From NCBI GenBank assembly GCA_964419615.1, contig CAYQPU010000026.1:11781-23701 (forward strand): a stretch of DNA of 11,921 nucleotides. The letters run 5' to 3'. Of this stretch, positions 1,761 through 11,292 are shown piece after piece; position 1 is the first letter of the stretch; each line of letters opens with the position of its first letter. Origin of the DNA: an uncultured Methanosarcinales archaeon (GTDB lineage Archaea; Nanobdellota; Nanobdellia; Woesearchaeales; JAGVZT01). Under the pieces are notes generated by a model that ran no database searches, had not been told where the DNA came from, and was given only the letters and a program-made list of their open reading frames with translations. Both the position numbers and the translations under genes were made by a program.

Positions 1761-2072
1761 TTTTTGTCGTCGGTGTAGGATTGGGTAAAAGTGATTTTGC
1801 TTAGAAGTTGTTAGCATTAGGTTCATACTTTGTTGTGAGTGCAATCAAAAACTTTATTAACTGAAATCAACACCTAGTCACTTAACATGAAAAAAAGTGA
1901 TTTAGTTCATTGTTAGAAATCTATTTTTACTAGTTACCATAATATTCTCATCAAAACTACATAGGTAGCTCTGCTACCCAAAAAAAAGATTTTATCCTCT
2001 ATAAATTAGATATTATTATTTGAATTACTGATAAGTATCCCATTTTTAGTCACTAACTCGTGACGACAAAAC

Positions 2073-2087
2073 CAAAAGATTTAAATA
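2073..2087 (+). promoter_or_regulatory. Putative BRE/TATA promoter driving the mini-ORF / structured RNA / tRNA-His region
   Basis: CAAAAGATTTAAATA. The identical 15-mer occurs on the minus strand at 7518-7504, upstream of the DUF2683 antitoxin gene. Confidence 0.6.
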
Positions 2088-2118
2088 CTAGTTATACCTT
2101 ACTATAGTTTGATACAAA

Positions 2119-2178
2119 ATGACAAAACTAATAATCCAGGATAAAGCAGTCAAAGCTGCTGATCGTGTTCATTGTTAG
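2119..2178 (+). CDS. 19-aa mini-ORF MTKLIIQDKAVKAADRVHC (candidate precursor or leader peptide 1)
   Basis: ATG lies about 30 nt downstream of the TATA box (short-leader geometry). It shares KAxKxAxxVH with the mini-ORF at 2870-2932. Not in the supplied ORF track. Confidence 0.45.
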   Translation: MTKLIIQDKAVKAADRVHC

Positions 2179-2244
2179 TTGTAAATCTATTTTTAATATT
2201 TTTAATAATAACATCTTGAACAATAATTCTCAATTTACAGATAG

Positions 2245-2428
2245 CAATGCAATCCAACCAACGCAGGCACAGACGGACTTTTGTCAAAACCAAAAGTCCT
2301 ATTCCATTGAACAGAACCGTAAACTATGCACAGAAAAATGCTTTGCATTTTTGGTGTCCAGGAAATTTAGTGATTTCCTTGATTTAAGAACCTATTCAAT
2401 TACATCTGGCCAAGGTTGGATTGCATTG
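2245..2428. ncRNA. 184-nt multibranched structured element (candidate ncRNA or MITE-like element)
   Basis: Perfect 15-bp closing stem CAATGCAATCCAACC (2245-2259) / GGTTGGATTGCATTG (2414-2428). Internal stems: 2275-2282/2292-2299, 2306-2314/2392-2400, 2334-2341/2345-2352 and 2360-2366/2373-2379. Confidence 0.55.
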
Positions 2429-2438
2429 GAATTTCTGA

Positions 2439-2535
2439 GAAATCCAGCCATGGTGCTGGTCGGACTGGGGTTGGGCCCTTCGGGCTGTCCGACGAGGAGC
2501 AAAGCGACGACAGCTACCATGGATGGCTGGATTTC
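2439..2535. ncRNA. 97-nt GC-rich branched hairpin (candidate ncRNA or cis-regulatory RNA)
   Basis: Stems GAAATCCAGCC/GGCTGGATTTC (11 bp), ATGGT/ACCAT, GCTG/CAGC and GTCGGAC/GTCCGAC, with an apical GCCC-TTC-GGGC. It is a GC island in AT-rich DNA, 34 nt upstream of tRNA-His #1. Confidence 0.55.
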
Positions 2536-2569
2536 ATCATTATCATCTATATTATATAGACTATGGAAT

Positions 2570-2728
2570 GGCAGTGGTGGTGTAATGGTAGCACTTTGGA
2601 CTGTGGTGACCTTTTACAAAAAGCTCAACCAAAAGATGGGCGACATTCAGCTTAAAAAAACGCTGAAGTCCCCTGTAAAAAGTTGCAGATCTCCAATAGC
2701 GCGGGTTCGATTCCCGTCTACTGCCCCA
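2570..2728 (+). tRNA. tRNA-His(GUG) #1 with an 84-nt BHB intron at canonical position 37/38 (intron 2607-2690); G-1 and CCA encoded
   Basis: G-1 (2570):C73 (2725); acceptor GCAGTGG/CTACTGC; D-arm GTGT-AATGGTA-GCAC; anticodon stem TTGGA/TCCAA; T-arm GCGGG-TTCGATT-CCCGT; CCA at 2726-2728. BHB: central helix CTGT/GCAG, bulges GG|T and AT|C. Confidence 0.93.
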
Positions 2729-2869
2729 TTCATTAACAAATTACCTTTATCTAATATGTTTCATAGTTGTTAATTCTAATCATTAACTAAATGGATTTTT
2801 TTGTGTAATTAATACAAATCTAAAACTTAAACAAACAGCCGACTGGGCTTTAAACAGGGAGGAAACAAA

Positions 2870-2932
2870 ATGAAAACAACAAATGAGGCTAAGGCGTTAA
2901 AAGACGCTGGATATGTTCACAAGAATTTGTGA
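2870..2932 (+). CDS. 20-aa mini-ORF MKTTNEAKALKDAGYVHKNL (candidate precursor or leader peptide 2)
   Basis: Strong RBS GGGAGG at 2857-2862, 7 nt before the ATG. It ends 32 nt before the radical SAM start. Not in the supplied ORF track. Confidence 0.65.
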   Translation: MKTTNEAKALKDAGYVHKNL

Positions 2933-2964
2933 AAACTGTGTATGTAAGGCAAGGAGGTGTGAAA

Positions 2965-4248
2965 ATGAAACGATCTAGCGACTATGTTGACAGGCTTAGA
3001 GAATGGAATAAAGCACAAGTTCTTGGACTAGCAAAAAGAGGATTGCTAAAACCAGATATAAACCCTATGACTACTTTGATTATGAACACAATGATTACAA
3101 CAATGGGAGTCAAAGCAAAGCAAGAAGTAGTGGAAAAAATCTCAAAGATAGCACTTAGAGGAGCACAAGCACCTGAACGAACAAAAAATGTAGGTGTTGG
3201 GATAAGTTATGGTCCAGGATTTAGAACACAAATGCCTATTGAGTCAATGTATGAACCAAATGATGGATTTAACCAAGGTTCAGCATTAACCCTAAAAGAA
3301 AAACAAGGAGACTTTTGGATTCAATGTGACTATGATGGAGAACTAAAGATGCCTGTGAATATTTGGGAAGGTCCCTCATGGTACCCTAGACAGATTCCAA
3401 ATAAGGAAGATCCAGAAAACCCATTTACACTATCTCAGTTAGTCCAAAGTGAGCTAGGTGTTCTGATGCTAAGTATCCCAGATAAGGATGGATTTCAGAG
3501 ATGTACCTACATAGAGAGAGATGAAGGATGCAAAATGTGTGGTATGGAAACAGATTACCAACCACTCACACCAGAATTATTGGTTGAGATAGTTGAGATG
3601 GATCTGCAGGAAAACCAGACAAATATAACTATGACTGGGGGAAATAACTACACCGCAGATAGGGGGATTAAAAAATACATCCCTTTTGTAGAGGCACTCC
3701 GCAAAAGATTTGGAGAAGAGTTGCCCATACAACTTGAGATCAGTCCACCACAGCAGGAAGAATATCTGGAATGGATGGCCGAAAATAAGTTATCAGCTTG
3801 GTTTAATCTAGAGATGTTTCCTTTTGACAAAGCTTCAGAAATTCTTAGGGAGAAGGTGATGCCAGCCAAGTCAAAGATTCCTTTAGAAGACTATTTTCAG
3901 AGCTTTAAGTTCCTAAACAATAGAGGACTTGAAACATACAGCGTGTTGATTGCAGGGTTGCAACCTCTTGAAGGAATCTACAAGGGAGCAGAAGCTCTCG
4001 CTGAAATAGGAACAACAACCGCAGTATTACCCTTCAAACCAAATGCTGACTCAGCATATCAAAGCAGGTTCCCTTGTTCTGTACCTGAGTTTATAGAGGC
4101 AACAATGGGTGTTGATAAAATACTGAGGGAAAGAGGATTAGACCTTACATCAAGAAGTGAGAACTGGTGTTCAGGCTGCGGAGGATGCGGAGCAGACAGA
4201 AACTATGCATTCAACAGAGAGCAAATAGTTGAGGCTTGGTCAAAATGA
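2965..4248 (+). CDS. Radical SAM protein (biotin-synthase-related COG2516 / MSMEG_0568-like), 427 aa from the RBS-supported ATG
   Basis: CX8CX2C motif CTYIERDEGCKMC, MTGG, LEISPP, LIAGL, VLPFKP and a C-terminal CSGCGGC. RBS GGAGGTG (2953-2959) supports ATG 2965 over GTG 2929. The family call is from motif recall, not a search. Confidence 0.85.
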   Translation: MKRSSDYVDRLREWNKAQVLGLAKRGLLKPDINPMTTLIMNTMITTMGVKAKQEVVEKISKIALRGAQAPERTKNVGVGISYGPGFRTQMPIESMYEPNDGFNQGSALTLKEKQGDFWIQCDYDGELKMPVNIWEGPSWYPRQIPNKEDPENPFTLSQLVQSELGVLMLSIPDKDGFQRCTYIERDEGCKMCGMETDYQPLTPELLVEIVEMDLQENQTNITMTGGNNYTADRGIKKYIPFVEALRKRFGEELPIQLEISPPQQEEYLEWMAENKLSAWFNLEMFPFDKASEILREKVMPAKSKIPLEDYFQSFKFLNNRGLETYSVLIAGLQPLEGIYKGAEALAEIGTTTAVLPFKPNADSAYQSRFPCSVPEFIEATMGVDKILRERGLDLTSRSENWCSGCGGCGADRNYAFNREQIVEAWSK

Positions 4249-4643
4249 GAAGAGTAACAAACTGCGAACTCTATAAGGCAATAGGTCCATATTCTTATGG
4301 ATGTTTTGCCAATTTTTTATTTTTTTCCAGTGGAATAACAGGTATAGATCCAAAAACAAATACCTTAGTGAATGCTTCACTAAAAAAAGAAATCACGCAG
4401 CTAATGGAAAACATAGACAAATTATTGAGAACTGTTAATCTGAAATTTTCAGATGTAATCAAAGTGACAGTATACTCCACAAACATATCTCTTTACAAGG
4501 AATTTAACAAAATCTATAGAGGATATTTTGAATCAAGTAACTATCCTGCACGAACTTTTGTTGAAGTAAGTGATCTACCAGGAAAAGCTAGATTTGAAGT
4601 TGACTTAATTTGCACAGCAGGTGAGCAAGATGAAAGAAATTAG
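4245..4643 (+). CDS. ridA: RidA/YjgF/UK114 family enamine/imine deaminase
   Basis: AIGPYS, SG(I)TGIDP, VIKVTVY, FNKIY..YF, PART (catalytic Arg) and LP...FEVD. ATG 4245 overlaps the radical SAM stop (ATGA). Confidence 0.88.
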   Translation: MRRVTNCELYKAIGPYSYGCFANFLFFSSGITGIDPKTNTLVNASLKKEITQLMENIDKLLRTVNLKFSDVIKVTVYSTNISLYKEFNKIYRGYFESSNYPARTFVEVSDLPGKARFEVDLICTAGEQDERN

Positions 4644-5622
4644 ACTTGATTATGCTGATGTAAAATTCCCACCGAGTAATAGAGTAGTTAAGCAACTCTC
4701 ATCAGAACTCAATAAAGTTAATCTCTATCCAAGAAAAATTTACCTAAAGCTAAAACAAAAACTAGCAGACTACTGTAATGTAAGTCCAGATAATATTTTA
4801 TTGACAAATGGTTCAGATGAGGCAATTGATCTGATCACAAATGCATATGGAAAAACAGTTTTAGTACCTGCTCCAACATTCTCAGAATATGAACGAGCAG
4901 CATTAAGGAATAAATGCAATATCAATAAAGTCAACTGTTTAAAAGGAAAGGATTACTCAACCAATTTTTCTGATAATGATTTAGCTAAGTCAAATCTTGT
5001 GTGGATCTGCAATCCAAATAACCCAACTGGCACAACAATTCCCGAAAAAACAATAGATTATATTCTGAAAAGATCAGTAGGATATGTTGCTGTTGATGAA
5101 TGCTATTATGAATTCTCAAAAAAAACTGTAATTCCTCTTCTAAAAGAATTTCAAAACTTGATTATAATAAGAAGCATGTCAAAAGGATTTGGCCTTGCTG
5201 GGTTAAGACTTGGTTACATTATTGCTGACAAGAGAATAATTAATGAATTAGAGCAGAGAAAACAGATTTTTAGTGTTAATCGAATTGCAGCAAAAGCAGG
5301 GTTGCTTGTTTTAGAGGACTTACAATACTATAAGAACTCAATAAATAATTTAATTGAGAACAGAGAAGAATTTAAAAAAGATCTTACTATTTTAGGTATT
5401 AATGTATTTGAATCAGACACAAATTTTGTGTTCATTTGTTTTAAAGACAAATATACAGTAGAGAAAATATACTCTTGCCTTAAAAGCAGAAGAGTATTTG
5501 TGTTTCCTGCTTGGGACTCAGAATTCTCAGGACCAGCAGGTTTTTCTCTAAGAATTGCAATAGGAGGAATAGAAGATCTAAAGATTATAGCAAAATATTT
5601 AAAAGAAGTTTTGGATAAGTGA
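4630..5622 (+). CDS. PLP-dependent aminotransferase, class I/II (histidinol-phosphate aminotransferase HisC / CobD-like)
   Basis: TNGSDEAI, PTFSEY, CNPNNPTG, DECYYEF and RSMSKGFGLAGLRLGY (PLP lysine). RBS GCAGGTGA precedes ATG 4630, and the gene overlaps ridA. Confidence 0.85.
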   Translation: MKEIRLDYADVKFPPSNRVVKQLSSELNKVNLYPRKIYLKLKQKLADYCNVSPDNILLTNGSDEAIDLITNAYGKTVLVPAPTFSEYERAALRNKCNINKVNCLKGKDYSTNFSDNDLAKSNLVWICNPNNPTGTTIPEKTIDYILKRSVGYVAVDECYYEFSKKTVIPLLKEFQNLIIIRSMSKGFGLAGLRLGYIIADKRIINELEQRKQIFSVNRIAAKAGLLVLEDLQYYKNSINNLIENREEFKKDLTILGINVFESDTNFVFICFKDKYTVEKIYSCLKSRRVFVFPAWDSEFSGPAGFSLRIAIGGIEDLKIIAKYLKEVLDK

Positions 5623-6923
5623 TTAATATGAAACTAGAAACAGCAAAAGGAGTGAGAGATTTTCCTCCAGAAGAGAAAATAATCAGAGAAAAGGTAGTTA
5701 ATACTCTCAAAACAGTCTTTGAAAAATACGGCTTTAATCCATTTGAACAGCCAATCATAGAAAAACTTGATGTACTAACAGCAAAGTTTGGAGCAGGAGA
5801 ATCCTCAGATGTTTACAAAGAAATCTTTAAACTTACAGATCAGGGAGAAAGAAAATTAGGGCTTAGGTTTGAACTAACGCTTGGACTATGCAGATACATA
5901 GCCATGAACCCAAAAATAAAACTTCCTTTCAAACGCTATGAAATAGGTCGGGTATACAGAGATGGGCCAATCAAGCTTGGCAGATACAGAGAATTCTGGC
6001 AATGTGATGTTGACATAGTTGGAACAGGTTCAATGATAGCAGATGCAGAAATCATTGGAATTTTGGCAGAAGCATTTGAAAAACTTGAGTTTGATGTTGA
6101 AATTGAGGTAAGTAATAGAAAGCTATTAGACGGAATGCTAGAACAAGCAGGAGTAAAAGAATCTTTAAGAAAAAAAGCTATGATAAGCATTGACAAACTA
6201 AAAAAAATAGGGATAAAGGGCGTAGCACAAGAACTAGAAGAGAGTAAAATAAGTAATGATTCAATATCTAAATTAAAAGAACTTTTAGCAATAAAAGGTT
6301 CAAACCTAGAAAAATTATCACAATTAGATAAAGCAATTAATAATGAAATTGGCAAACAAGGTTTAAAAGAGCTAAAAGAAATATTTGAGTACACAAAGGC
6401 AATTGGCACTAAAAATATTATTTTTAACCAGACACTTGCCAGAGGACTTGCTTACTACACAGGCCCTGTGTTTGAAGTATTTTTGAAGAACTCAAAAATC
6501 ACTTCAAGTGTCGCTGGCGGTGGAAGATATGATGAATTTATTGGTAACTTCCTTGGCGGAAAAAAGCAAATACCTGCAACAGGAGTTGCATTTGGCCTTG
6601 AGCCAATCACAGAAGCAATCAAACTAAAACAAAAGGATATTCCAAAATCAGTCGCACAAGTCTACGTAATCCCTATCAAAGTTAAAAAACAGGCATTAGA
6701 AATAGTCCAAACCCTAAGGAAGGCAGAGATCAAAGCAGATTTTGATCTAATGGATCGCGGGTTAAGCTCGAACCTGGACTATGCAAATAAGATGGGGATT
6801 CCTTATGTTATTATTGTAGGTCAAAAAGATCTTGACAATAAACAAGTTACTGTTAGGAATATGAAAACCGGGAAAGAGGAGAAAATTGCTCTGGATAAAC
6901 TCACTACAATTAAATTCAACTAA
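5619..6923 (+). CDS. hisS: Histidine--tRNA ligase (archaeal/eukaryotic type); start at GTG 5619 or ATG 5628
   Basis: KGVRDF, LRFELT, RVYRDGP...GRYREFWQCDVDIVG, ARGLAYYTG, GGGRYD, GVAFGLE and a C-terminal anticodon-binding domain. Confidence 0.96.
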   Translation: MINMKLETAKGVRDFPPEEKIIREKVVNTLKTVFEKYGFNPFEQPIIEKLDVLTAKFGAGESSDVYKEIFKLTDQGERKLGLRFELTLGLCRYIAMNPKIKLPFKRYEIGRVYRDGPIKLGRYREFWQCDVDIVGTGSMIADAEIIGILAEAFEKLEFDVEIEVSNRKLLDGMLEQAGVKESLRKKAMISIDKLKKIGIKGVAQELEESKISNDSISKLKELLAIKGSNLEKLSQLDKAINNEIGKQGLKELKEIFEYTKAIGTKNIIFNQTLARGLAYYTGPVFEVFLKNSKITSSVAGGGRYDEFIGNFLGGKKQIPATGVAFGLEPITEAIKLKQKDIPKSVAQVYVIPIKVKKQALEIVQTLRKAEIKADFDLMDRGLSSNLDYANKMGIPYVIIVGQKDLDNKQVTVRNMKTGKEEKIALDKLTTIKFN

Positions 6924-7205
6924 CTACCTTTTATAGACCTGATCATGATGCCTTAGATTAACAAACAAAATATGATTGTGGTCTTTATCAACTTTAAAGA
7001 TTAATACAAAACTCTTATCAATATATACTCTTTTATATTCACTTAGAGAATATCTCAAATTTTTATATCTATCAATTGATTTTTGATCATTTTCAACAAT
7101 CTTCTTTATCTTTTCGTTTAAAATCACAACTCTTAGTTTATCCTTTTTAACAAGTTTCTTAATTAATAATTTTAACTCATCTGATAAATCAAAATTAAAA
7201 TTCAT
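6924..7205 (-). CDS. RelE/YafQ-like type II toxin
   Basis: 93 aa from ATG 7205, which overlaps the antitoxin stop (ATGA). Basic protein with KNLRYSLSEYKRVYIDKSFVLIF and a C-terminal HHDQVY. Confidence 0.78.
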   Translation of the reverse strand: MNFNFDLSDELKLLIKKLVKKDKLRVVILNEKIKKIVENDQKSIDRYKNLRYSLSEYKRVYIDKSFVLIFKVDKDHNHILFVNLRHHDQVYKR

Positions 7206-7456
7206 TCTAAACCACAAAGCTTGTCTAGCTCCTTAACACTCATCTTCCTATGTCCATACTTTTTGATATGAGCATTACATAATTCAATAGTTTCTAATAC
7301 TATTTCATCATTTACATCCTTGCTTACAAACTCTTCTCCAAAAATATCCGCAAATTTATCAAGAGCTTCTGCTTTATCTCTTAGTCCAAACTTTTCTTTA
7401 ATAACACCCAAAACCCTACTTGTGTACTCATTTACAGTTATACTCATTGAAGTCAT
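7202..7456 (-). CDS. DUF2683-like antitoxin
   Basis: 84 aa, ITVNEYTSRVLGVIKEKFGLRDKAEAL (RHH-like N-terminus). RBS AGGTGA, and the gene lies directly upstream of the toxin. Confidence 0.72.
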   Translation of the reverse strand: MTSMSITVNEYTSRVLGVIKEKFGLRDKAEALDKFADIFGEEFVSKDVNDEIVLETIELCNAHIKKYGHRKMSVKELDKLCGLE

Positions 7457-7503
7457 TTAAAATCACCTTGGCTAATTTAATGTGACTTGGTATCAATTTG
7501 AAT

Positions 7504-7588
7504 TATTTAAATCTTTTGTTTCGGATGTTCCATTTGTGGAACAATTGTTCCATTAAATATAGTTGTAATAAACAAAACATATTTAAGG
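7504..7588. promoter_or_regulatory. Divergent promoter region with a three-heptamer (TGTTCCA) operator
   Basis: Minus-strand BRE/TATA at 7518-7504 and plus-strand AAAAC-ATATTTAA near 7574-7586. TGTTCCA (7526-7532), TGGAACA (7537-7543) and TGTTCCA (7546-7552); 7537-7552 is a perfect 16-bp palindrome. Confidence 0.65.
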
Positions 7589-7609
7589 GAACACAACACA
7601 ACTCTTCTT

Positions 7610-8158
7610 GTGATAAGAAAATACGCCTTATTCAAGGTCTTTGAATGCCTAAGAAACACAGATCAAGAAGAATCAGTTAGGTCATTAGCAAGAAAAGCAG
7701 AAGTAGGAGTTGCAACATCCAAAAGATGTCTGGATTATTTATTTGAAAATAAAGTTGTGAAGCGAAAGGTGATTGGCAGGTTATATCAGTATCAGTTAGA
7801 TCAAGAAAACTTTCTAACAAGGCAATTAAAAACAACAATGTCTTTGGCAGAAATTAGAAAATCCGGACTCATCGAAGAAATTTTGGAAAAACAACCAAAT
7901 GTTTTATCAATTGTGTTATATGGATCAGTATCAACTGGAAAGGACACAATGAAAAGTGATATTGATCTATTAATCATCTCAACAAATAAGTTAAAAATTG
8001 GGTTGTTAAAATCAGAAAAAACCCTAAAAAGAGAATTATCAATAATTAACTATTCTCATTCAGAATGGAGGAAAAAATCTTTAACAGACAAACCCTTCTA
8101 TGACTCTGTAATCACAGAAGGAACACGCCTTTTTGGTGAGATGCCTGTGGTGAGATAG
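7610..8158 (+). CDS. Winged-HTH fused to a minimal nucleotidyltransferase (MNT antitoxin)
   Basis: N-terminal HTH SVRSLARKAEVGVATSKRCLDYL and MNT motif LYGSVSTGKDTMKSDIDLLII (GSx10DxD). Probable leaderless GTG start. Confidence 0.85.
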   Translation: MIRKYALFKVFECLRNTDQEESVRSLARKAEVGVATSKRCLDYLFENKVVKRKVIGRLYQYQLDQENFLTRQLKTTMSLAEIRKSGLIEEILEKQPNVLSIVLYGSVSTGKDTMKSDIDLLIISTNKLKIGLLKSEKTLKRELSIINYSHSEWRKKSLTDKPFYDSVITEGTRLFGEMPVVR

Positions 8159-8577
8159 TGAATTTACATGAGTGCTTTGAAAAAGGTCTATTAAAAAAAG
8201 AAGTTCCAAATAAGGATAAATCCAGAAAATCAATTCAAATAGCCAAACATAAATTAAATCTAGCAAAAAAACTATGCAAACTAAATATTTTTGAAGAGGC
8301 TGTCACAAATTCATACTCTGCAATGTTTCATGCAGCAAGATCTTTACTGTTTAAAGACGGGATCAGGGAAAAAAGTCATTATGGCCTGTTTGTGTATCTG
8401 AGGGAAGAATATTCAAATAAATTTGAAAAAAGATTTCTAACAGAATTAAATGCCTTAAGACTTGAAAGACACAAAATAAGCTATGGTCTGGAAACCACAA
8501 AAATTACCAAAGAAGAGGCCAATACAATAGTTGAAGTAGCGGCTGAATTTTTGGTTGCTGTTGAAAAGCTTAAATAA
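8158..8577 (+). CDS. HEPN domain protein (toxin partner of the MNT)
   Basis: AVTNSYSAMFHAARSLL...REKSH; 139 aa. The start overlaps the MNT stop, the usual MNT-HEPN arrangement. Confidence 0.85.
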   Translation: MNLHECFEKGLLKKEVPNKDKSRKSIQIAKHKLNLAKKLCKLNIFEEAVTNSYSAMFHAARSLLFKDGIREKSHYGLFVYLREEYSNKFEKRFLTELNALRLERHKISYGLETTKITKEEANTIVEVAAEFLVAVEKLK

Positions 8578-8642: not shown

Positions 8643-9878
8643 ATGAAAGAAGCAATTAATGATCTCCTTTTACAAGTAAGCTATAGTTCAATCACAGTCT
8701 TTAGTTGGAGCTTTGTCTTCTTGTTTTTTCTTTCAAACAACATTTCTTACACTCAGATGCTCATCTTTTACTTAATAGTGTGTGCAGTTGCATTAATTGT
8801 ATCATTATTAATGAAAAAATTCATTACATCAAAGATGATCGCATTCTCGCTGTTGTTTAGAATAGCAACTTATGCAGCCATAATTAAGCTCGTTTCAGTA
8901 AATCAAATTTATGTTGCAGGAATTGCATTTGGAGTATTTATCCCATTATTCTGGGTTCCGTACAAAATTAACCTGTTCAAGCATAGTAAGAAAGAAAACA
9001 CTGCTACTTTGTGTGGTGTAATGTCAATCATTTACCCAACACTTAGACTATTCTTACCAATTGTTGGTGCTTTTGTCATTAAAAGTTTTGGTTATGATTT
9101 ACTATTTCAAATAAGTATTGTTGCATTAGTAGCTGTGGCATTTTTTGCCATGAGAGCGAAACCTCAAAAAGTTGATTTTGATTTCAAAGAATCGCTAACA
9201 AAAACAAAAAACATCAATAAATTAATTTTTATTGAGGGAATGACCACAACATTAGCTTGGATGATAGTTCCATTAGTCACACTACAATTTGTTCAGGAAG
9301 CAATCAGCTTTGGATTATTCATAACAACAACTAGTTTTTTTGGAGTTATGGCTGCAATACTAATGGCCAGACACTCAGATAAAAAACAAGAAAGAGTAGA
9401 ATATATCTACCCTGCAGCAATAGCAGCAAGTTTACTATTTTTTGCAGCTGCATTTTCAAAATCAATTGTAGTCTGGACCATCTTAATTGGTATGGCAACA
9501 TTCGCATCCAGAATTCTCAACCCATTTTATGAGGCAGTTGTTTTAGATAAAAGAAAAAATCTGCACAACAGCATGCACTCACGAGAAATATTAATCAATC
9601 TTGGAAGAACAGTTGCAATGGTATTCATCTTAGCGTGCTATCTTGTATTTGATAATCTGAGAATCCCCTTGGCAATTCTCTCACTTGTTGGTTTATACTA
9701 TCCATATTACTTAAGTAAACATAAAATCTACAAAAACAGTGAATCAATCAAAACATACGTAAAAAACAAAGCAACAAATATTACAAGTAAAGCATTTCTT
9801 AGAACACATTTCTTCCTACCGAAAACCAATGATAAGCTTAAATGGACTTGGAAATATATTAAGGATAAAATCAAGTGA
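8643..9878 (+). CDS. Major facilitator superfamily transporter
   Basis: 411 aa with about 12 hydrophobic segments in two halves, MARHSDKKQER in the second-half loop motif, and a basic C-terminal tail. Upstream CAAAAAC-ATTTAAAA promoter-like motif near 8602-8616. Confidence 0.8.
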   Translation: MKEAINDLLLQVSYSSITVFSWSFVFLFFLSNNISYTQMLIFYLIVCAVALIVSLLMKKFITSKMIAFSLLFRIATYAAIIKLVSVNQIYVAGIAFGVFIPLFWVPYKINLFKHSKKENTATLCGVMSIIYPTLRLFLPIVGAFVIKSFGYDLLFQISIVALVAVAFFAMRAKPQKVDFDFKESLTKTKNINKLIFIEGMTTTLAWMIVPLVTLQFVQEAISFGLFITTTSFFGVMAAILMARHSDKKQERVEYIYPAAIAASLLFFAAAFSKSIVVWTILIGMATFASRILNPFYEAVVLDKRKNLHNSMHSREILINLGRTVAMVFILACYLVFDNLRIPLAILSLVGLYYPYYLSKHKIYKNSESIKTYVKNKATNITSKAFLRTHFFLPKTNDKLKWTWKYIKDKIK

Positions 9879-9902: not shown

Positions 9903-10117
9903 GACGGTAGCCGGGATTTTCACATAAACTTTCAAAAGCTGATAGGGGGCTAAGCGAACAAAGAGAGCGCATGCCGCCTTACCTTTGATCAAATCCACGA
10001 AAACAAAGTTTTCGGGACACGGAAATTATTAATTTCCCGCGCTTTGTAAAAGTTTGATTTGAACCCGGGCCGCAAGATCCACAGTCTTGAATGCTGCCAT
10101 GCTACACTACTACCGTC
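9903..10117 (-). tRNA. tRNA-His(GUG) #2 with a 141-nt BHB intron in the T-loop at 59/60 (intron 10057-9917); G-1 encoded, CCA not encoded
   Basis: G-1:C73; acceptor ACGGTAG/CTACCGT; D-arm GTGT-AGCATGGCA-GCAT; anticodon arm CAAGA-CTGTGGA-TCTTG; T-arm CCGGG-TTCAAA|T-CCCGG. BHB: central helix TTCA/TGAA, both bulges AA|T. Confidence 0.92.
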
Positions 10118-10176: not shown

Positions 10177-11292
10177 TTAACCAACTTGAGCTTGAAGATT
10201 TCCAATTGAGTCAATGGTTGGCAATGGCATATCATACACTTCTGTTGGAAACAAACCCTTTACTTTAATTGCACTCCCATCAGCCTGTTCAATAGCATGT
10301 TTCCATTTGAAAAAATCTCCATTTGATAAATTGATACCACTAGTAGCAAGTAAGAAGTCATCTCTAGCTTCAAACTGAGAATATGGTAAATTCAAATTCC
10401 TAATATCTCTTCTGTACATAAACTTCCCTGAAGGTGTTGCAAACAAGTCTGCATAAAATACATCATCAACAAAATGCCCACCAATTGTTATCTCAGATCC
10501 AATTGCAGCTGACAAAGCAACGTGAATATTAACATCATATGCTTCTTTCTCATCAATAACTTTCATTTCAGCTCTTTGTCCACAAGGAATATCTTCTGTA
10601 ATAGGATAATGGAAAAACCTATCATCATCAAGTCCAGTTTCTGGGTATGACCTATACTCACCGTGTATATTTGTATCATCATTAGAAAGTAAAAAATTTA
10701 TGCTATCATCAAAACTTGCATGAAAGGATAGTTTGGCTTTTGTGACAACATACTTACCTTCAACATCTGTATTAGGTAAATCTTCAAATGGAACAAAAAT
10801 TGCATCTCTTGGTTTATAAAAAACAAACGGATGTTCTGTCCATTCTGCTTCAGCTTTAACATAATTACCATAGATTGTAGCAACATGTGCAAGTTCTCCT
10901 CTAAGACCAACAGGTAGTCTTTGGTTAAAAACATTTGAGTCAAGATATCCTTCTTTAGCCAATTTACTAACAGTCTCATTAAATTCAATAACTCTTGCAT
11001 TTAATTTCTGAACGCAAGATTCCAACTCTGCTCCTGTCTCTTCAACTTTTCCTGCAACATTGGGTAGAATGTCTTCCCATTCACTTCCACACCTTTGAAC
11101 TAATTTGTCAAATTCAGTTGGAGACATACTACTTGGGTACTCACTAGGCTGAATCCCATGAAAAAAAGATTCTGCAATAACTTTTGCATCCTCAAAAAGA
11201 CTATCAGACCATTGGTAGTTTCTAACTGTATCAAGGAACAAGAATCTTGGAAGAAAATTAAATCTTGTTTCTGCATAACCCGCAACTTTCAT
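10177..11292 (-). CDS. Hypothetical acidic protein (371 aa), possibly N-terminally truncated
   Basis: Long ORF with protein-like composition and a coiled-coil-like segment (ELESCVQKLNARVIEFNETVSKL). No family motif recognised. Confidence 0.75.
   Translation of the reverse strand: MKVAGYAETRFNFLPRFLFLDTVRNYQWSDSLFEDAKVIAESFFHGIQPSEYPSSMSPTEFDKLVQRCGSEWEDILPNVAGKVEETGAELESCVQKLNARVIEFNETVSKLAKEGYLDSNVFNQRLPVGLRGELAHVATIYGNYVKAEAEWTEHPFVFYKPRDAIFVPFEDLPNTDVEGKYVVTKAKLSFHASFDDSINFLLSNDDTNIHGEYRSYPETGLDDDRFFHYPITEDIPCGQRAEMKVIDEKEAYDVNIHVALSAAIGSEITIGGHFVDDVFYADLFATPSGKFMYRRDIRNLNLPYSQFEARDDFLLATSGINLSNGDFFKWKHAIEQADGSAIKVKGLFPTEVYDMPLPTIDSIGNLQAQVG

Follow-up and report, generated by a model that had tools for sequence, protein, structure and literature searches.

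Leader-controlled amino-acid operons are already known from bacteria, where attenuators such as hisL and the leaderless polycysteine open reading frames (ORFs) of mycobacteria (bioRxiv 10.1101/834739) are short 5′ ORFs that force the ribosome to read the cognate codon. The clustering of tRNA, synthetase, and radical S-adenosylmethionine (SAM) enzyme genes is likewise known from the pyrrolysine cassette, pylTSBCD. In addition, radical SAM dehydrogenases and aminotransferases occur as pairs, as in BtrN with BtrS, which participate in 2-deoxystreptamine synthesis, and DesII with DesI/DesV. Here we describe a locus in a stretch of 11,921 nt (hereafter the window; C26:11781-23701) of the 1.48-Mb, 99%-complete genome G000 of an uncultured Woesearchaeales archaeon, in which His-codon mini-ORFs and a tRNA-His gene precede genes encoding a variant radical SAM enzyme, a RidA protein, a HisC/CobD-like aminotransferase, and histidyl-tRNA synthetase (HisRS, encoded by hisS). 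Our tentative interpretation, to which we give somewhat less than an even chance, is an operon that is controlled by leaders sensing His-tRNA and that has received different cassettes for the supply of histidine.

The locus resembles each of the described systems in part. Its first two mini-ORFs lie near the promoter, as do the leaderless mycobacterial ORFs (bioRxiv 10.1101/834739), and are followed by terminator-like tracts. Unlike the bacterial attenuators, however, it belongs to an archaeal host, each mini-ORF has one (rarely two) His codon within a conserved motif rather than a run of codons, and no alternative hairpin pair was identified; furthermore, the genes that would be controlled include a tRNA gene and a synthetase gene, and the system is known here from sequence. 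The comparison with pylTSBCD is limited to the clustering itself, given that the locus includes no dedicated second synthetase, suppressor anticodon, or ATP-grasp or dehydrogenase partners and that its tRNA and synthetase are a housekeeping pair. The likeness to BtrN/BtrS and DesII is one of chemistry, in that a radical SAM enzyme and a pyridoxal phosphate (PLP)-dependent aminotransferase together turn a C–OH or C–NH2 group via a carbonyl into an amine. Radical SAM dehydrogenases carry a second, C-terminal Cys motif, and the second Cys motif of the window radical SAM protein could similarly hold a second iron–sulfur cluster. In contrast, no specific sequence relationship with BtrN or DesII was detected, and neither ranked with the best structural matches. 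The substrates would resemble amino acids instead of sugars, and the aminotransferase is of a different subclass.

We did not find this system in the literature on Nit1C and the MSMEG_0568 family, on DPANN radical SAM enzymes and HisRS, on archaeal leader peptides, or on histidine auxotrophy in Woesearchaeota. The cassette is histidine-centered and new to the searched literature, while its components come from known superfamilies. An earlier note, made from the sequence of this stretch without database searches, had already proposed a histidine-centered and undescribed cassette, and this part of its proposal is borne out by the recurrence of the linkage among mini-ORFs, tRNA-His, and hisS and by the silence of that literature.

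Organization and Conservation of the Locus

The gene order of the window is a flavin adenine dinucleotide (FAD) oxidoreductase gene, a divergent promoter region, mini-ORFs 1 and 2, a structured stretch, tRNA-His, mini-ORF 3, and a block of four genes on the plus strand. This block is present and tightly packed, as the earlier note had described. It begins with the gene for the radical SAM protein of 427 aa (2965..4248), the stop codon of which forms an ATGA overlap with the start of ridA (4245..4643). The aminotransferase gene (4630..5622) overlaps ridA by 14 nt, and hisS (5628..6923) starts 5 nt after the aminotransferase stop codon.

The earlier note had also raised the prospect that the enzyme genes would prove unlinked to hisS or tRNA-His in related genomes. 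Instead, the linkage recurs in independent lineages. At each of the eight loci where the gene that follows the radical SAM gene is complete (the window, L004, L007, L010, L026, L027, L028, and L029), that gene encodes a class I/II aminotransferase, and the radical SAM gene is linked to His-codon mini-ORFs at seven loci, to tRNA-His at five, and to hisS at four. In the window, G156, L004, L010/L034, and L028, the radical SAM gene has a tRNA-His(GUG) gene on its 5′ side, and hisS follows the aminotransferase gene in the window, G156, L004, and L010. Related metagenomic and Woesearchaeota loci share an order in which motif-bearing mini-ORFs are followed by tRNA-His(GUG), a variable enzyme cassette, and hisS. 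The order FAD oxidoreductase, hisS, and major facilitator superfamily (MFS) transporter is also common to relatives.

The enzymes found in the variable position differ considerably among these loci. In a long form of the cassette (G156, L015 3544-6803; L031 5174-8491), genes for a phosphoenolpyruvate (PEP)-utilizing enzyme and an AP_endonuc_2 triosephosphate isomerase (TIM) barrel protein are located between those for the radical SAM protein and the aminotransferase. The PEP-utilizing enzyme is similar to the C-terminal region of PPDK and has no nucleotide-binding domain; the TIM barrel is weakly CbiR/Nfo-like, is fused to the aminotransferase in G156, and in the L031 copy scores 58.8 bits against CbiR, which is below the cut-off. 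In G308 (L025, G308:C41, 6609-9925), tRNA-His is followed by genes for a 331-aa distant variant of the radical SAM protein (NF045502, 80 bits) and an amino-acid racemase (TIGR00035, above cut-off) and then by hisS; a racemase in this position points to chemistry at the amino-acid Cα. L035, on a 1.08-Mb archaeal contig, consists of a leader, tRNA-His, a group I aminotransferase gene, and hisS and has no radical SAM gene. Genome G060, which belongs to the same genus as the window genome and likewise has no radical SAM gene, encodes orthologs of leaders 1–3 with the same TATA spacing, T5 tracts, and conserved element before leader 3. Its slot between tRNA-His and hisS (L022, G060:C43, 9266-12074, minus strand) contains genes for a HisZ-like protein of 312 aa, which is a HisRS paralog without the anticodon-binding domain, unnamed proteins of 220 aa and 108 aa, and a DUF6282 protein. 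Standing behind the same three His-motif leaders, the G060 cassette is a candidate second histidine-related cassette.

Given that the mini-ORFs, tRNA-His, and hisS occupy the same locus in G060 and L035 in the absence of the radical SAM gene, we conclude that the housekeeping tRNA-hisS unit is the scaffold into which the enzyme genes were inserted. This does not support the idea that the tRNA and the synthetase were recruited to the enzymes. That different enzymes lie behind the same His signal in different lineages would be expected if the slot serves ways of obtaining histidine.

His-Codon Mini-ORFs

Three mini-ORFs precede the radical SAM gene on the plus strand. The earlier note had reported two, of 19 aa and 20 aa; both are present, and the count is raised by a third of 9 aa at 1887-1916. 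Mini-ORF 1 (1887..1916) ends in S-D-L-V-H, Cys, and stop and is followed by a T5 tract (1924-1928). Mini-ORF 2 (2119..2178; 19 aa) ends in A-D-R-V-H, Cys, and stop and is followed by two T5 tracts (2190-2194 and 2199-2203). Mini-ORF 3 (2870..2932; 20 aa) contains A-G-Y-V-H followed by three codons and stop, and it lies directly 5′ of the radical SAM gene, with its stop codon 32 nt upstream of the radical SAM start. Thus, each window mini-ORF has a single His codon, located one to three codons before the stop codon in a D/G-x-V-H context, and across loci the motif is D/G-x-(V/L/I/P)-H. TATA-like boxes are present ~30 nt upstream of mini-ORFs 1 and 2 (at about 2080-2087 for mini-ORF 2). Mini-ORF 3 has a strong ribosome-binding site, which is part of a conserved 5′ element (2837..2864, plus strand) that is near-identical in G060, where it lies 5′ of the HisZ-like gene, and in L004, where it lies 5′ of the radical SAM gene. 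T5 tracts are the usual archaeal termination signal, and in both the window and G060 they are found 7-25 nt after the stop codons of leaders 1 and 2.

The motif is concentrated at this locus. A strict pattern is matched by 12 of the 21,244 ATG mini-ORFs genome-wide, 3 of which are in the window. With a looser motif pattern, 15 ORFs in the sense and 1 in the antisense orientation were counted in upstream regions totalling 7.7 kb, compared with 0.37 expected from the genome-wide rate; the enrichment is therefore ~40-fold over expectation and restricted to the sense strand. Orthologs of mini-ORF 1, with the same layout, and of mini-ORF 2 are present in G060 (L022 12850-12821 and 12628-12569, respectively), similar ORFs of 8-13 aa are found in L004, L010, and L026, and homologs of mini-ORF 3 are present in G060, G156, L004, L010, and L031. 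Besides the window, the loci that have His-motif mini-ORFs 5′ of the radical SAM gene are G156, L004 (with two), L007, L010 (with three or four), L026 (with three), and L031. In three of these loci (L007, L026, and L031), hisS does not adjoin the cassette, which argues that the His signal is tied to the enzymes themselves as well. In L004, the second His-motif leader ORF and the annotated start of the radical SAM coding sequence (9988-10104; 10001 onward) overlap in different frames, and the first ~40 residues of the L004 radical SAM protein are not conserved in homologs.

Because the single His codon stands in a conserved peptide context, the nascent peptide may contribute to pausing. A further candidate leader was identified elsewhere in the same genome. 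On G000 C5, ~106 nt upstream of serS (at 20552), a mini-ORF of 15 codons includes eight Ser codons and has a TATA-like box before it and a T5 tract after it. This Ser-rich mini-ORF is a candidate for a classical-looking cognate leader in front of the seryl-tRNA synthetase gene, and its presence suggests that leader control of synthetase operons is not a one-off in this genome.

The Variant Radical SAM Protein

The radical SAM protein matches the general family model with a score (PF04055, 22.8 bits) below the gathering threshold of 29.5. Its scores against the nearest curated models are also below cut-off, namely 74.7 versus 303.7 bits for TIGR04043 (the MSMEG_0568 family), with a match that spans model positions 113-349 only, and 64.2 versus 125 bits for NF045502. 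The C-terminal two-thirds, including the cluster region, are common to the window protein and these families; the gene neighborhoods differ. The canonical radical SAM motif, C-x3-C-x2-C, binds the SAM-cleaving [4Fe-4S] cluster. In the window protein, the corresponding motif is C-x8-C-x2-C, the cysteines of which (C180, C189, and C192) are invariant in 15 homologs, one homolog (P0009) having the canonical spacing. The alignment shows three further marks of the family: a C-x2-C-x2-C motif toward the C terminus, a conserved N-terminal domain that includes the motif K-R-T-G-N-V-G, and Lys302, which is invariant.

A confident AlphaFold model (predicted local distance difference test score [pLDDT] 92) contains a complete radical SAM core. 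The best solved match is lipoyl synthase LipA (VIA-align Z 16.1, root-mean-square deviation 3.7 Å over 243 residues), and Z is 11-15 for NifB, MqnE, HydE, BioB, and PFL-AE. The probability given by Foldseek is 1.00. The core matches LipA, NifB, MqnE, HydE, BioB, HydG, PylB, NosL, and ThiH, and none of these is singled out. The earlier note had compared the protein with the aromatic-amino-acid lyases ThiH, HydG, and NosL. This assignment is not supported by our searches, given that the VIA-align Z scores to these three enzymes (12.7-13.6) are below those to LipA, NifB, and MqnE, that their structural similarity is no better than that of LipA, NifB, and HydE, that no NCBIfam match to the ThiH/HydG/NosL lyase families was found at E <= 0.01, and that the nearest models are MSMEG_0568-like. 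Searches with Foldseek against the PDB, with VIA-align, and in the ESM Atlas returned generic radical SAM matches and unnamed clusters that provide no functional clue; relatives by whole-length fold (TM score 0.76) are found in Bacillota in the ESM Atlas.

The family is very rare. A word-index search of 5.8 billion proteins recovered two relatives, and an exhaustive HMMER search recovered nine clusters at E <= 1e-30, the query's own included, within a wider halo of 369 clusters. The gene is present in 3 of 401 genomes of the phylum. A scan of 185,579 species genomes, using a pattern taken from an 8-sequence alignment since the 15-sequence alignment was too diverse, identified two others, both Woesearchaeota.

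RidA, Aminotransferase, and HisRS

The second gene of the block encodes a RidA/Rid-family imine deaminase (PF01042, 97.2 bits with a cut-off of 27.3; TIGR00004, 103.6 versus 106.25). Comparison of nine related loci gave no match to it, and the genes called at the other radical SAM loci likewise include no such gene. RidA is thus present only in the window copy and is not the core part of the system that the earlier note had taken it to be.

The third gene encodes a class I/II aminotransferase (PF00155, 158 bits) for which HisC is the closest family by sequence; it conserves the PLP lysine motif and the C-terminal Arg, and its nearest solved structures are HisC entries (PDB 3HDO, 1H1C, and 1FG3). 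It scores 258.7 bits against the HisC equivalog model TIGR01141, below the cut-off of 276.55, and every copy in related loci (161-265 bits) also falls below this cut-off. The score on the CobD model is 194.6 bits, and the HisC score exceeds the CobD score in every HisC-like copy. Arg322 of Escherichia coli HisC, which we take to be the second, phosphate-binding Arg, is represented by an Arg in Geobacter HisC (3HDO). The window aminotransferase, which belongs to what we designate group I, has a Phe at this position, unlike HisC; no group I relative has an Arg or Lys there, and the group II copies have Lys or Arg. The type of aminotransferase is exchanged among loci, being HisC-like group I in the window and G156, HisC-like group II in others, and AspAT-like in L004 and L007, which argues for generic 2-oxo-acid transamination. 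We considered and rejected an arginine-derived route, given that the GntC/VioD-like matches of the L004 and L007 aminotransferases represent generic class I similarity and are below cut-off. Relatives of the group I aminotransferase in Hadarchaeum adjoin genes for a 2-hydroxyacid dehydrogenase, a 2-oxoacid:ferredoxin oxidoreductase, and an amino-acid ABC transporter, a neighborhood that is, by predicted function, an amino-acid and 2-oxo-acid context. HisC-like domains also occur inside open frames of 565-580 aa in the Woesearchaeota-order genomes G364, G389, G132, G100, G306, and G304 (L040-L047); the N-terminal halves of these frames do not match the G156 TIM barrel.

The last gene of the block encodes HisRS (TIGR00442, 364.4 versus 286.75 bits) with the catalytic class II core and the anticodon-binding domain (PF13393 and PF03129). 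It is the sole HisRS gene of the genome, so that the synthetase is not an extra, dedicated copy; a second hisS, for which the earlier note had suggested looking, does not exist here.

Absence of the Canonical Histidine Pathway

As the earlier note had observed, the window contains no other histidine-biosynthesis genes. Family searches extend this result to the whole 99%-complete genome, in which hisG, hisD, hisF, and IGPD were not found, the same searches being positive in 14/14 known genomes used as controls; IGPD and hisD were also not found in five relatives. As judged from its predicted genes, the organism is therefore a histidine auxotroph for the canonical pathway. Given the absence of these genes, the HisC-like aminotransferase cannot work in the canonical pathway.

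Structured RNA, tRNA Genes, and Flanking Genes

The earlier note had predicted structured elements before the first tRNA-His gene. This prediction is confirmed by the region 2225-2560, which folds far better than shuffled sequence (z = -6.6). Domain A (2245..2428, plus strand) is closed by a 15-bp long-range stem and has no Rfam match. The domain is conserved in a shorter version in G060 (L022 about 12345-12530, minus strand), and both the closing stem and one hairpin show compensatory changes when these two sequences are compared by eye. Could domain A be a processing signal or a regulatory RNA? Both are possible roles. Domain B (2436..2540, plus strand) is a long hairpin that consists of a short hairpin carrying a GC-rich insertion of ~65 nt. 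The insertion (2452-2520) is a UUCG-capped hairpin segment, a 92% identical copy of which lies beside tRNA-Gly at C20:3758-3823; the G060 counterpart is the short hairpin only, without the insertion.

The window includes two tRNA-His(GUG) genes, both of which have the G-1:C73 pair. The first (2571..2728, plus strand; Rfam RF00005, 49.1 bits; also recognized by ARAGORN) is where the earlier note had placed it, and the description needs correction in that the gene carries an intron of 84-87 nt after position 37 (37/38; about 2608-2691); G-1 and CCA are encoded. The tRNA-His gene of G060 has no intron. The second gene, which the earlier note had also recognized, proves to be on the minus strand (9903..10117; 10117 to about 9903) and to be interrupted in the T-loop by an insertion of ~140 nt, which explains why Rfam and ARAGORN miss it. 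It was read by eye and is recognized by ARAGORN after in-silico removal of the insertion; CCA is not encoded, and the gene has a TATA-like box upstream and a T-run downstream. ARAGORN with intron search recognized 10 tRNAs in the whole genome, 7 of them with introns, a count that fits an archaeon with frequently interrupted tRNA genes. That only 10 were recognized in a 99%-complete genome suggests that most of its tRNA genes are interrupted at non-canonical positions, as is the second tRNA-His gene, or are otherwise unusual.

The FAD oxidoreductase gene (68-1405) lies to the left of the divergent promoter region. To the right of hisS, two toxin–antitoxin-like pairs (6924-8577), one on the minus strand that consists of a ParE-like 97-aa ORF and a partner of 84 aa and one on the plus strand that consists of an MNT nucleotidyltransferase and HEPN, separate hisS from the gene for an MFS transporter (8643..9878, plus strand; PF07690). 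In contrast, hisS and the transporter gene are adjacent in relatives, with the latter directly 3′ of hisS in G060, G073, G201, and G156. This transporter possibly imports histidine or a histidine precursor. An ORF of 371 aa near the right end of the window (10177-11292, minus strand) has no Pfam or NCBIfam match. A C/D-box snoRNA-like Rfam match inside it (10557-10635, minus strand; 27.5 bits, below gathering, E 0.12) is probably due to chance.

Proposed Function and Alternative Explanations

We hypothesize that the operon is built on a housekeeping unit in which tRNA-His, hisS, and the MFS transporter gene follow one another, with two or three leader ORFs in front. In the sensing mechanism that we infer, scarcity of charged tRNA-His would cause ribosomes to pause at the leader His codon, with the result that transcription or translation continues into the operon; a plausible route is that pausing overrides the oligo-T terminator-like tracts after leaders 1 and 2. 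For the enzymes, we infer a pathway that runs toward L-histidine. The radical SAM protein would oxidize a scavenged reduced or "wrong" His congener, for which D-His, imidazole-lactate, and N-alpha-substituted His are candidates, to imidazole-pyruvate or its imine. RidA would hydrolyze the imine, the aminotransferase would yield L-His, and HisRS would load L-His on tRNA-His. This conversion of a 2-oxo acid to an amino acid, with L-His as the product, is suggested by the exchangeable aminotransferase, by the fact that group I has no phosphate-binding Arg, by the Hadarchaeum context, by the presence of RidA in the window, and by the racemase of G308. A role in supplying histidine appears to fit the evidence better than the role in modifying histidine envisaged by the earlier note. 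A more ambitious version of this hypothesis, to which we give a substantial chance though one well below even, holds that the locus specifies an undescribed enzymatic route to L-histidine, by salvage or partial biosynthesis, in archaea without the universal ten-step pathway, together with a new archaeal class of single-His-codon leaders that sense His-tRNA charging, the alternative cassettes (G060, G308, and the long form) being independent solutions to the same need.

Several observations weigh against a histidine-supply operon. The leaders have one His codon each (two in L004 and L007), unlike the His-codon runs of bacterial his leaders, and to our knowledge leader-peptide attenuation has not been demonstrated in archaea. 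Only in this genus are the leaders clearly followed by T-tracts, and runs of T are common in AT-rich DNA. The broader "variant rSAM" family, which is MSMEG_0568-like, has no characterized member. The two extra enzymes of the long form are not explained by a scheme of oxidation followed by transamination, and a nicotinamide adenine dinucleotide (NAD)-dependent dehydrogenase or a racemase would achieve the proposed chemistry more cheaply. Proximity to hisS is not the rule for HisC-like aminotransferases in the phylum, as most are located elsewhere; homologs are found in 20/401 genomes, a count that includes one unpublished genome, G244, which is used for no other claim, and in 18 further genomes the homolog has no hisS, radical SAM, or PEP-utilizer gene within 1.5 kb. 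Finally, no leader was seen at L029, the pair in L026 is followed by the gene for TrpRS rather than hisS, and the pair in L027 precedes the gene for ArgRS and lies behind a mini-ORF of 16 codons (4874-4924) with three Arg codons near its end and no His. The radical SAM protein of L027 has the canonical C-x3-C-x2-C spacing, and this family member may be tied to arginine rather than histidine.

These last loci bear on an explanation in which the radical SAM–aminotransferase pair is unrelated to histidine, serving for example cobamide-linker or other cofactor salvage, and simply rides in the highly expressed synthetase operons of compact DPANN genomes. The pair would then be expected to travel with different synthetases, as it does before ArgRS and TrpRS, or with none adjoining, as in L007 and L029, and both the CobD-model score of the aminotransferase and the weak similarity of the L031 TIM barrel to CbiR, a cobamide phosphodiesterase, agree with a role in salvage. 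However, even where hisS is not adjacent, as in L007, L026, and L031, His-motif mini-ORFs immediately precede the radical SAM gene; furthermore, tRNA-His is upstream in five loci, the motif is enriched ~40-fold, and every HisC-like aminotransferase scores higher against HisC than CobD. Given the evidence of the His leaders and tRNA-His, we retain cobamide salvage only within this explanation, which we consider improbable, slightly more so than the operation of the pathway in the opposite direction. In that case, which we judge to be unlikely, the aminotransferase would make imidazole-pyruvate from histidine, the radical SAM protein would convert the keto acid to a cofactor precursor, signal, or fermentation intermediate, and the leaders would couple expression to the availability of histidine, as the Trp-sensing TnaC leader does for tryptophanase. 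Such a histidine-consuming pathway would explain why the residues around the His codon are kept at the peptide level, a feature that resembles ligand-sensing arrest peptides more than codon-run attenuators; it would also agree with the amino-acid fermentation contexts of aminotransferase relatives and with RidA, which is typical where imines or enamines are released. Yet an organism that lacks the canonical pathway would be destroying a scarce amino acid, and catabolic genes joined to tRNA-His and the only hisS would cause the charging machinery to be over-produced when histidine is plentiful. Furthermore, the gene order, with the radical SAM gene before the aminotransferase gene, and the G308 racemase fit the production of an L-amino acid better.

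Two further explanations give the mini-ORFs or the tRNA genes a different role. The short conserved peptides directly upstream of the radical SAM gene are what would be expected of precursors resembling those of ribosomally synthesized and post-translationally modified peptides (RiPPs), with the His motif modified by the radical SAM protein, and the earlier note had allowed for peptide substrates. We consider this very unlikely. The orthologous peptides are encoded in G060 and L035, which have no radical SAM gene; two of the three mini-ORFs are upstream of the tRNA gene with promoters of their own; some encode peptides of just 8-10 aa; they are not accompanied by a protease, a transporter, or a RiPP recognition element; and the invariable aminotransferase partner points to small-molecule chemistry. 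Least probable, to the point of being hardly credible, is a pyrrolysine-like or tRNA-dependent system in which His is modified on tRNA-His or a His analogue is inserted by a dedicated tRNA/synthetase pair. In its favor, no more than 8 kb separates the enzymes from hisS and both tRNA-His genes, and the earlier note had drawn the pylTSBCD analogy and suggested a dedicated His-tRNA supply. This analogy is not supported, given that the sole HisRS of the genome scores as an ordinary hisS product, that both tRNAs have the ordinary GUG anticodon and the standard G-1:C73 pair, and that relatives without the enzymes have the tRNA-His and hisS unit in the same place.

Implications for Histidine Metabolism and Archaeal Gene Regulation

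The prevailing view is that histidine is made by one universal pathway and that DPANN archaea simply import it. If the histidine-supply hypothesis is true, a two-enzyme radical route would be new amino-acid biochemistry and would change how the metabolic dependence of symbionts is modelled. The His-codon mini-ORFs, together with the Ser-rich mini-ORF before serS, are concrete candidates, open to testing, for control by leader peptides, a type of regulation not yet established in archaea. The signature of mini-ORF motif, tRNA-His, cassette, and hisS also flags a set of uncharacterized families as histidine-related, namely the variant radical SAM proteins, DUF6282, the HisZ-like paralog, and unnamed proteins of 220, 332, and 387 aa.

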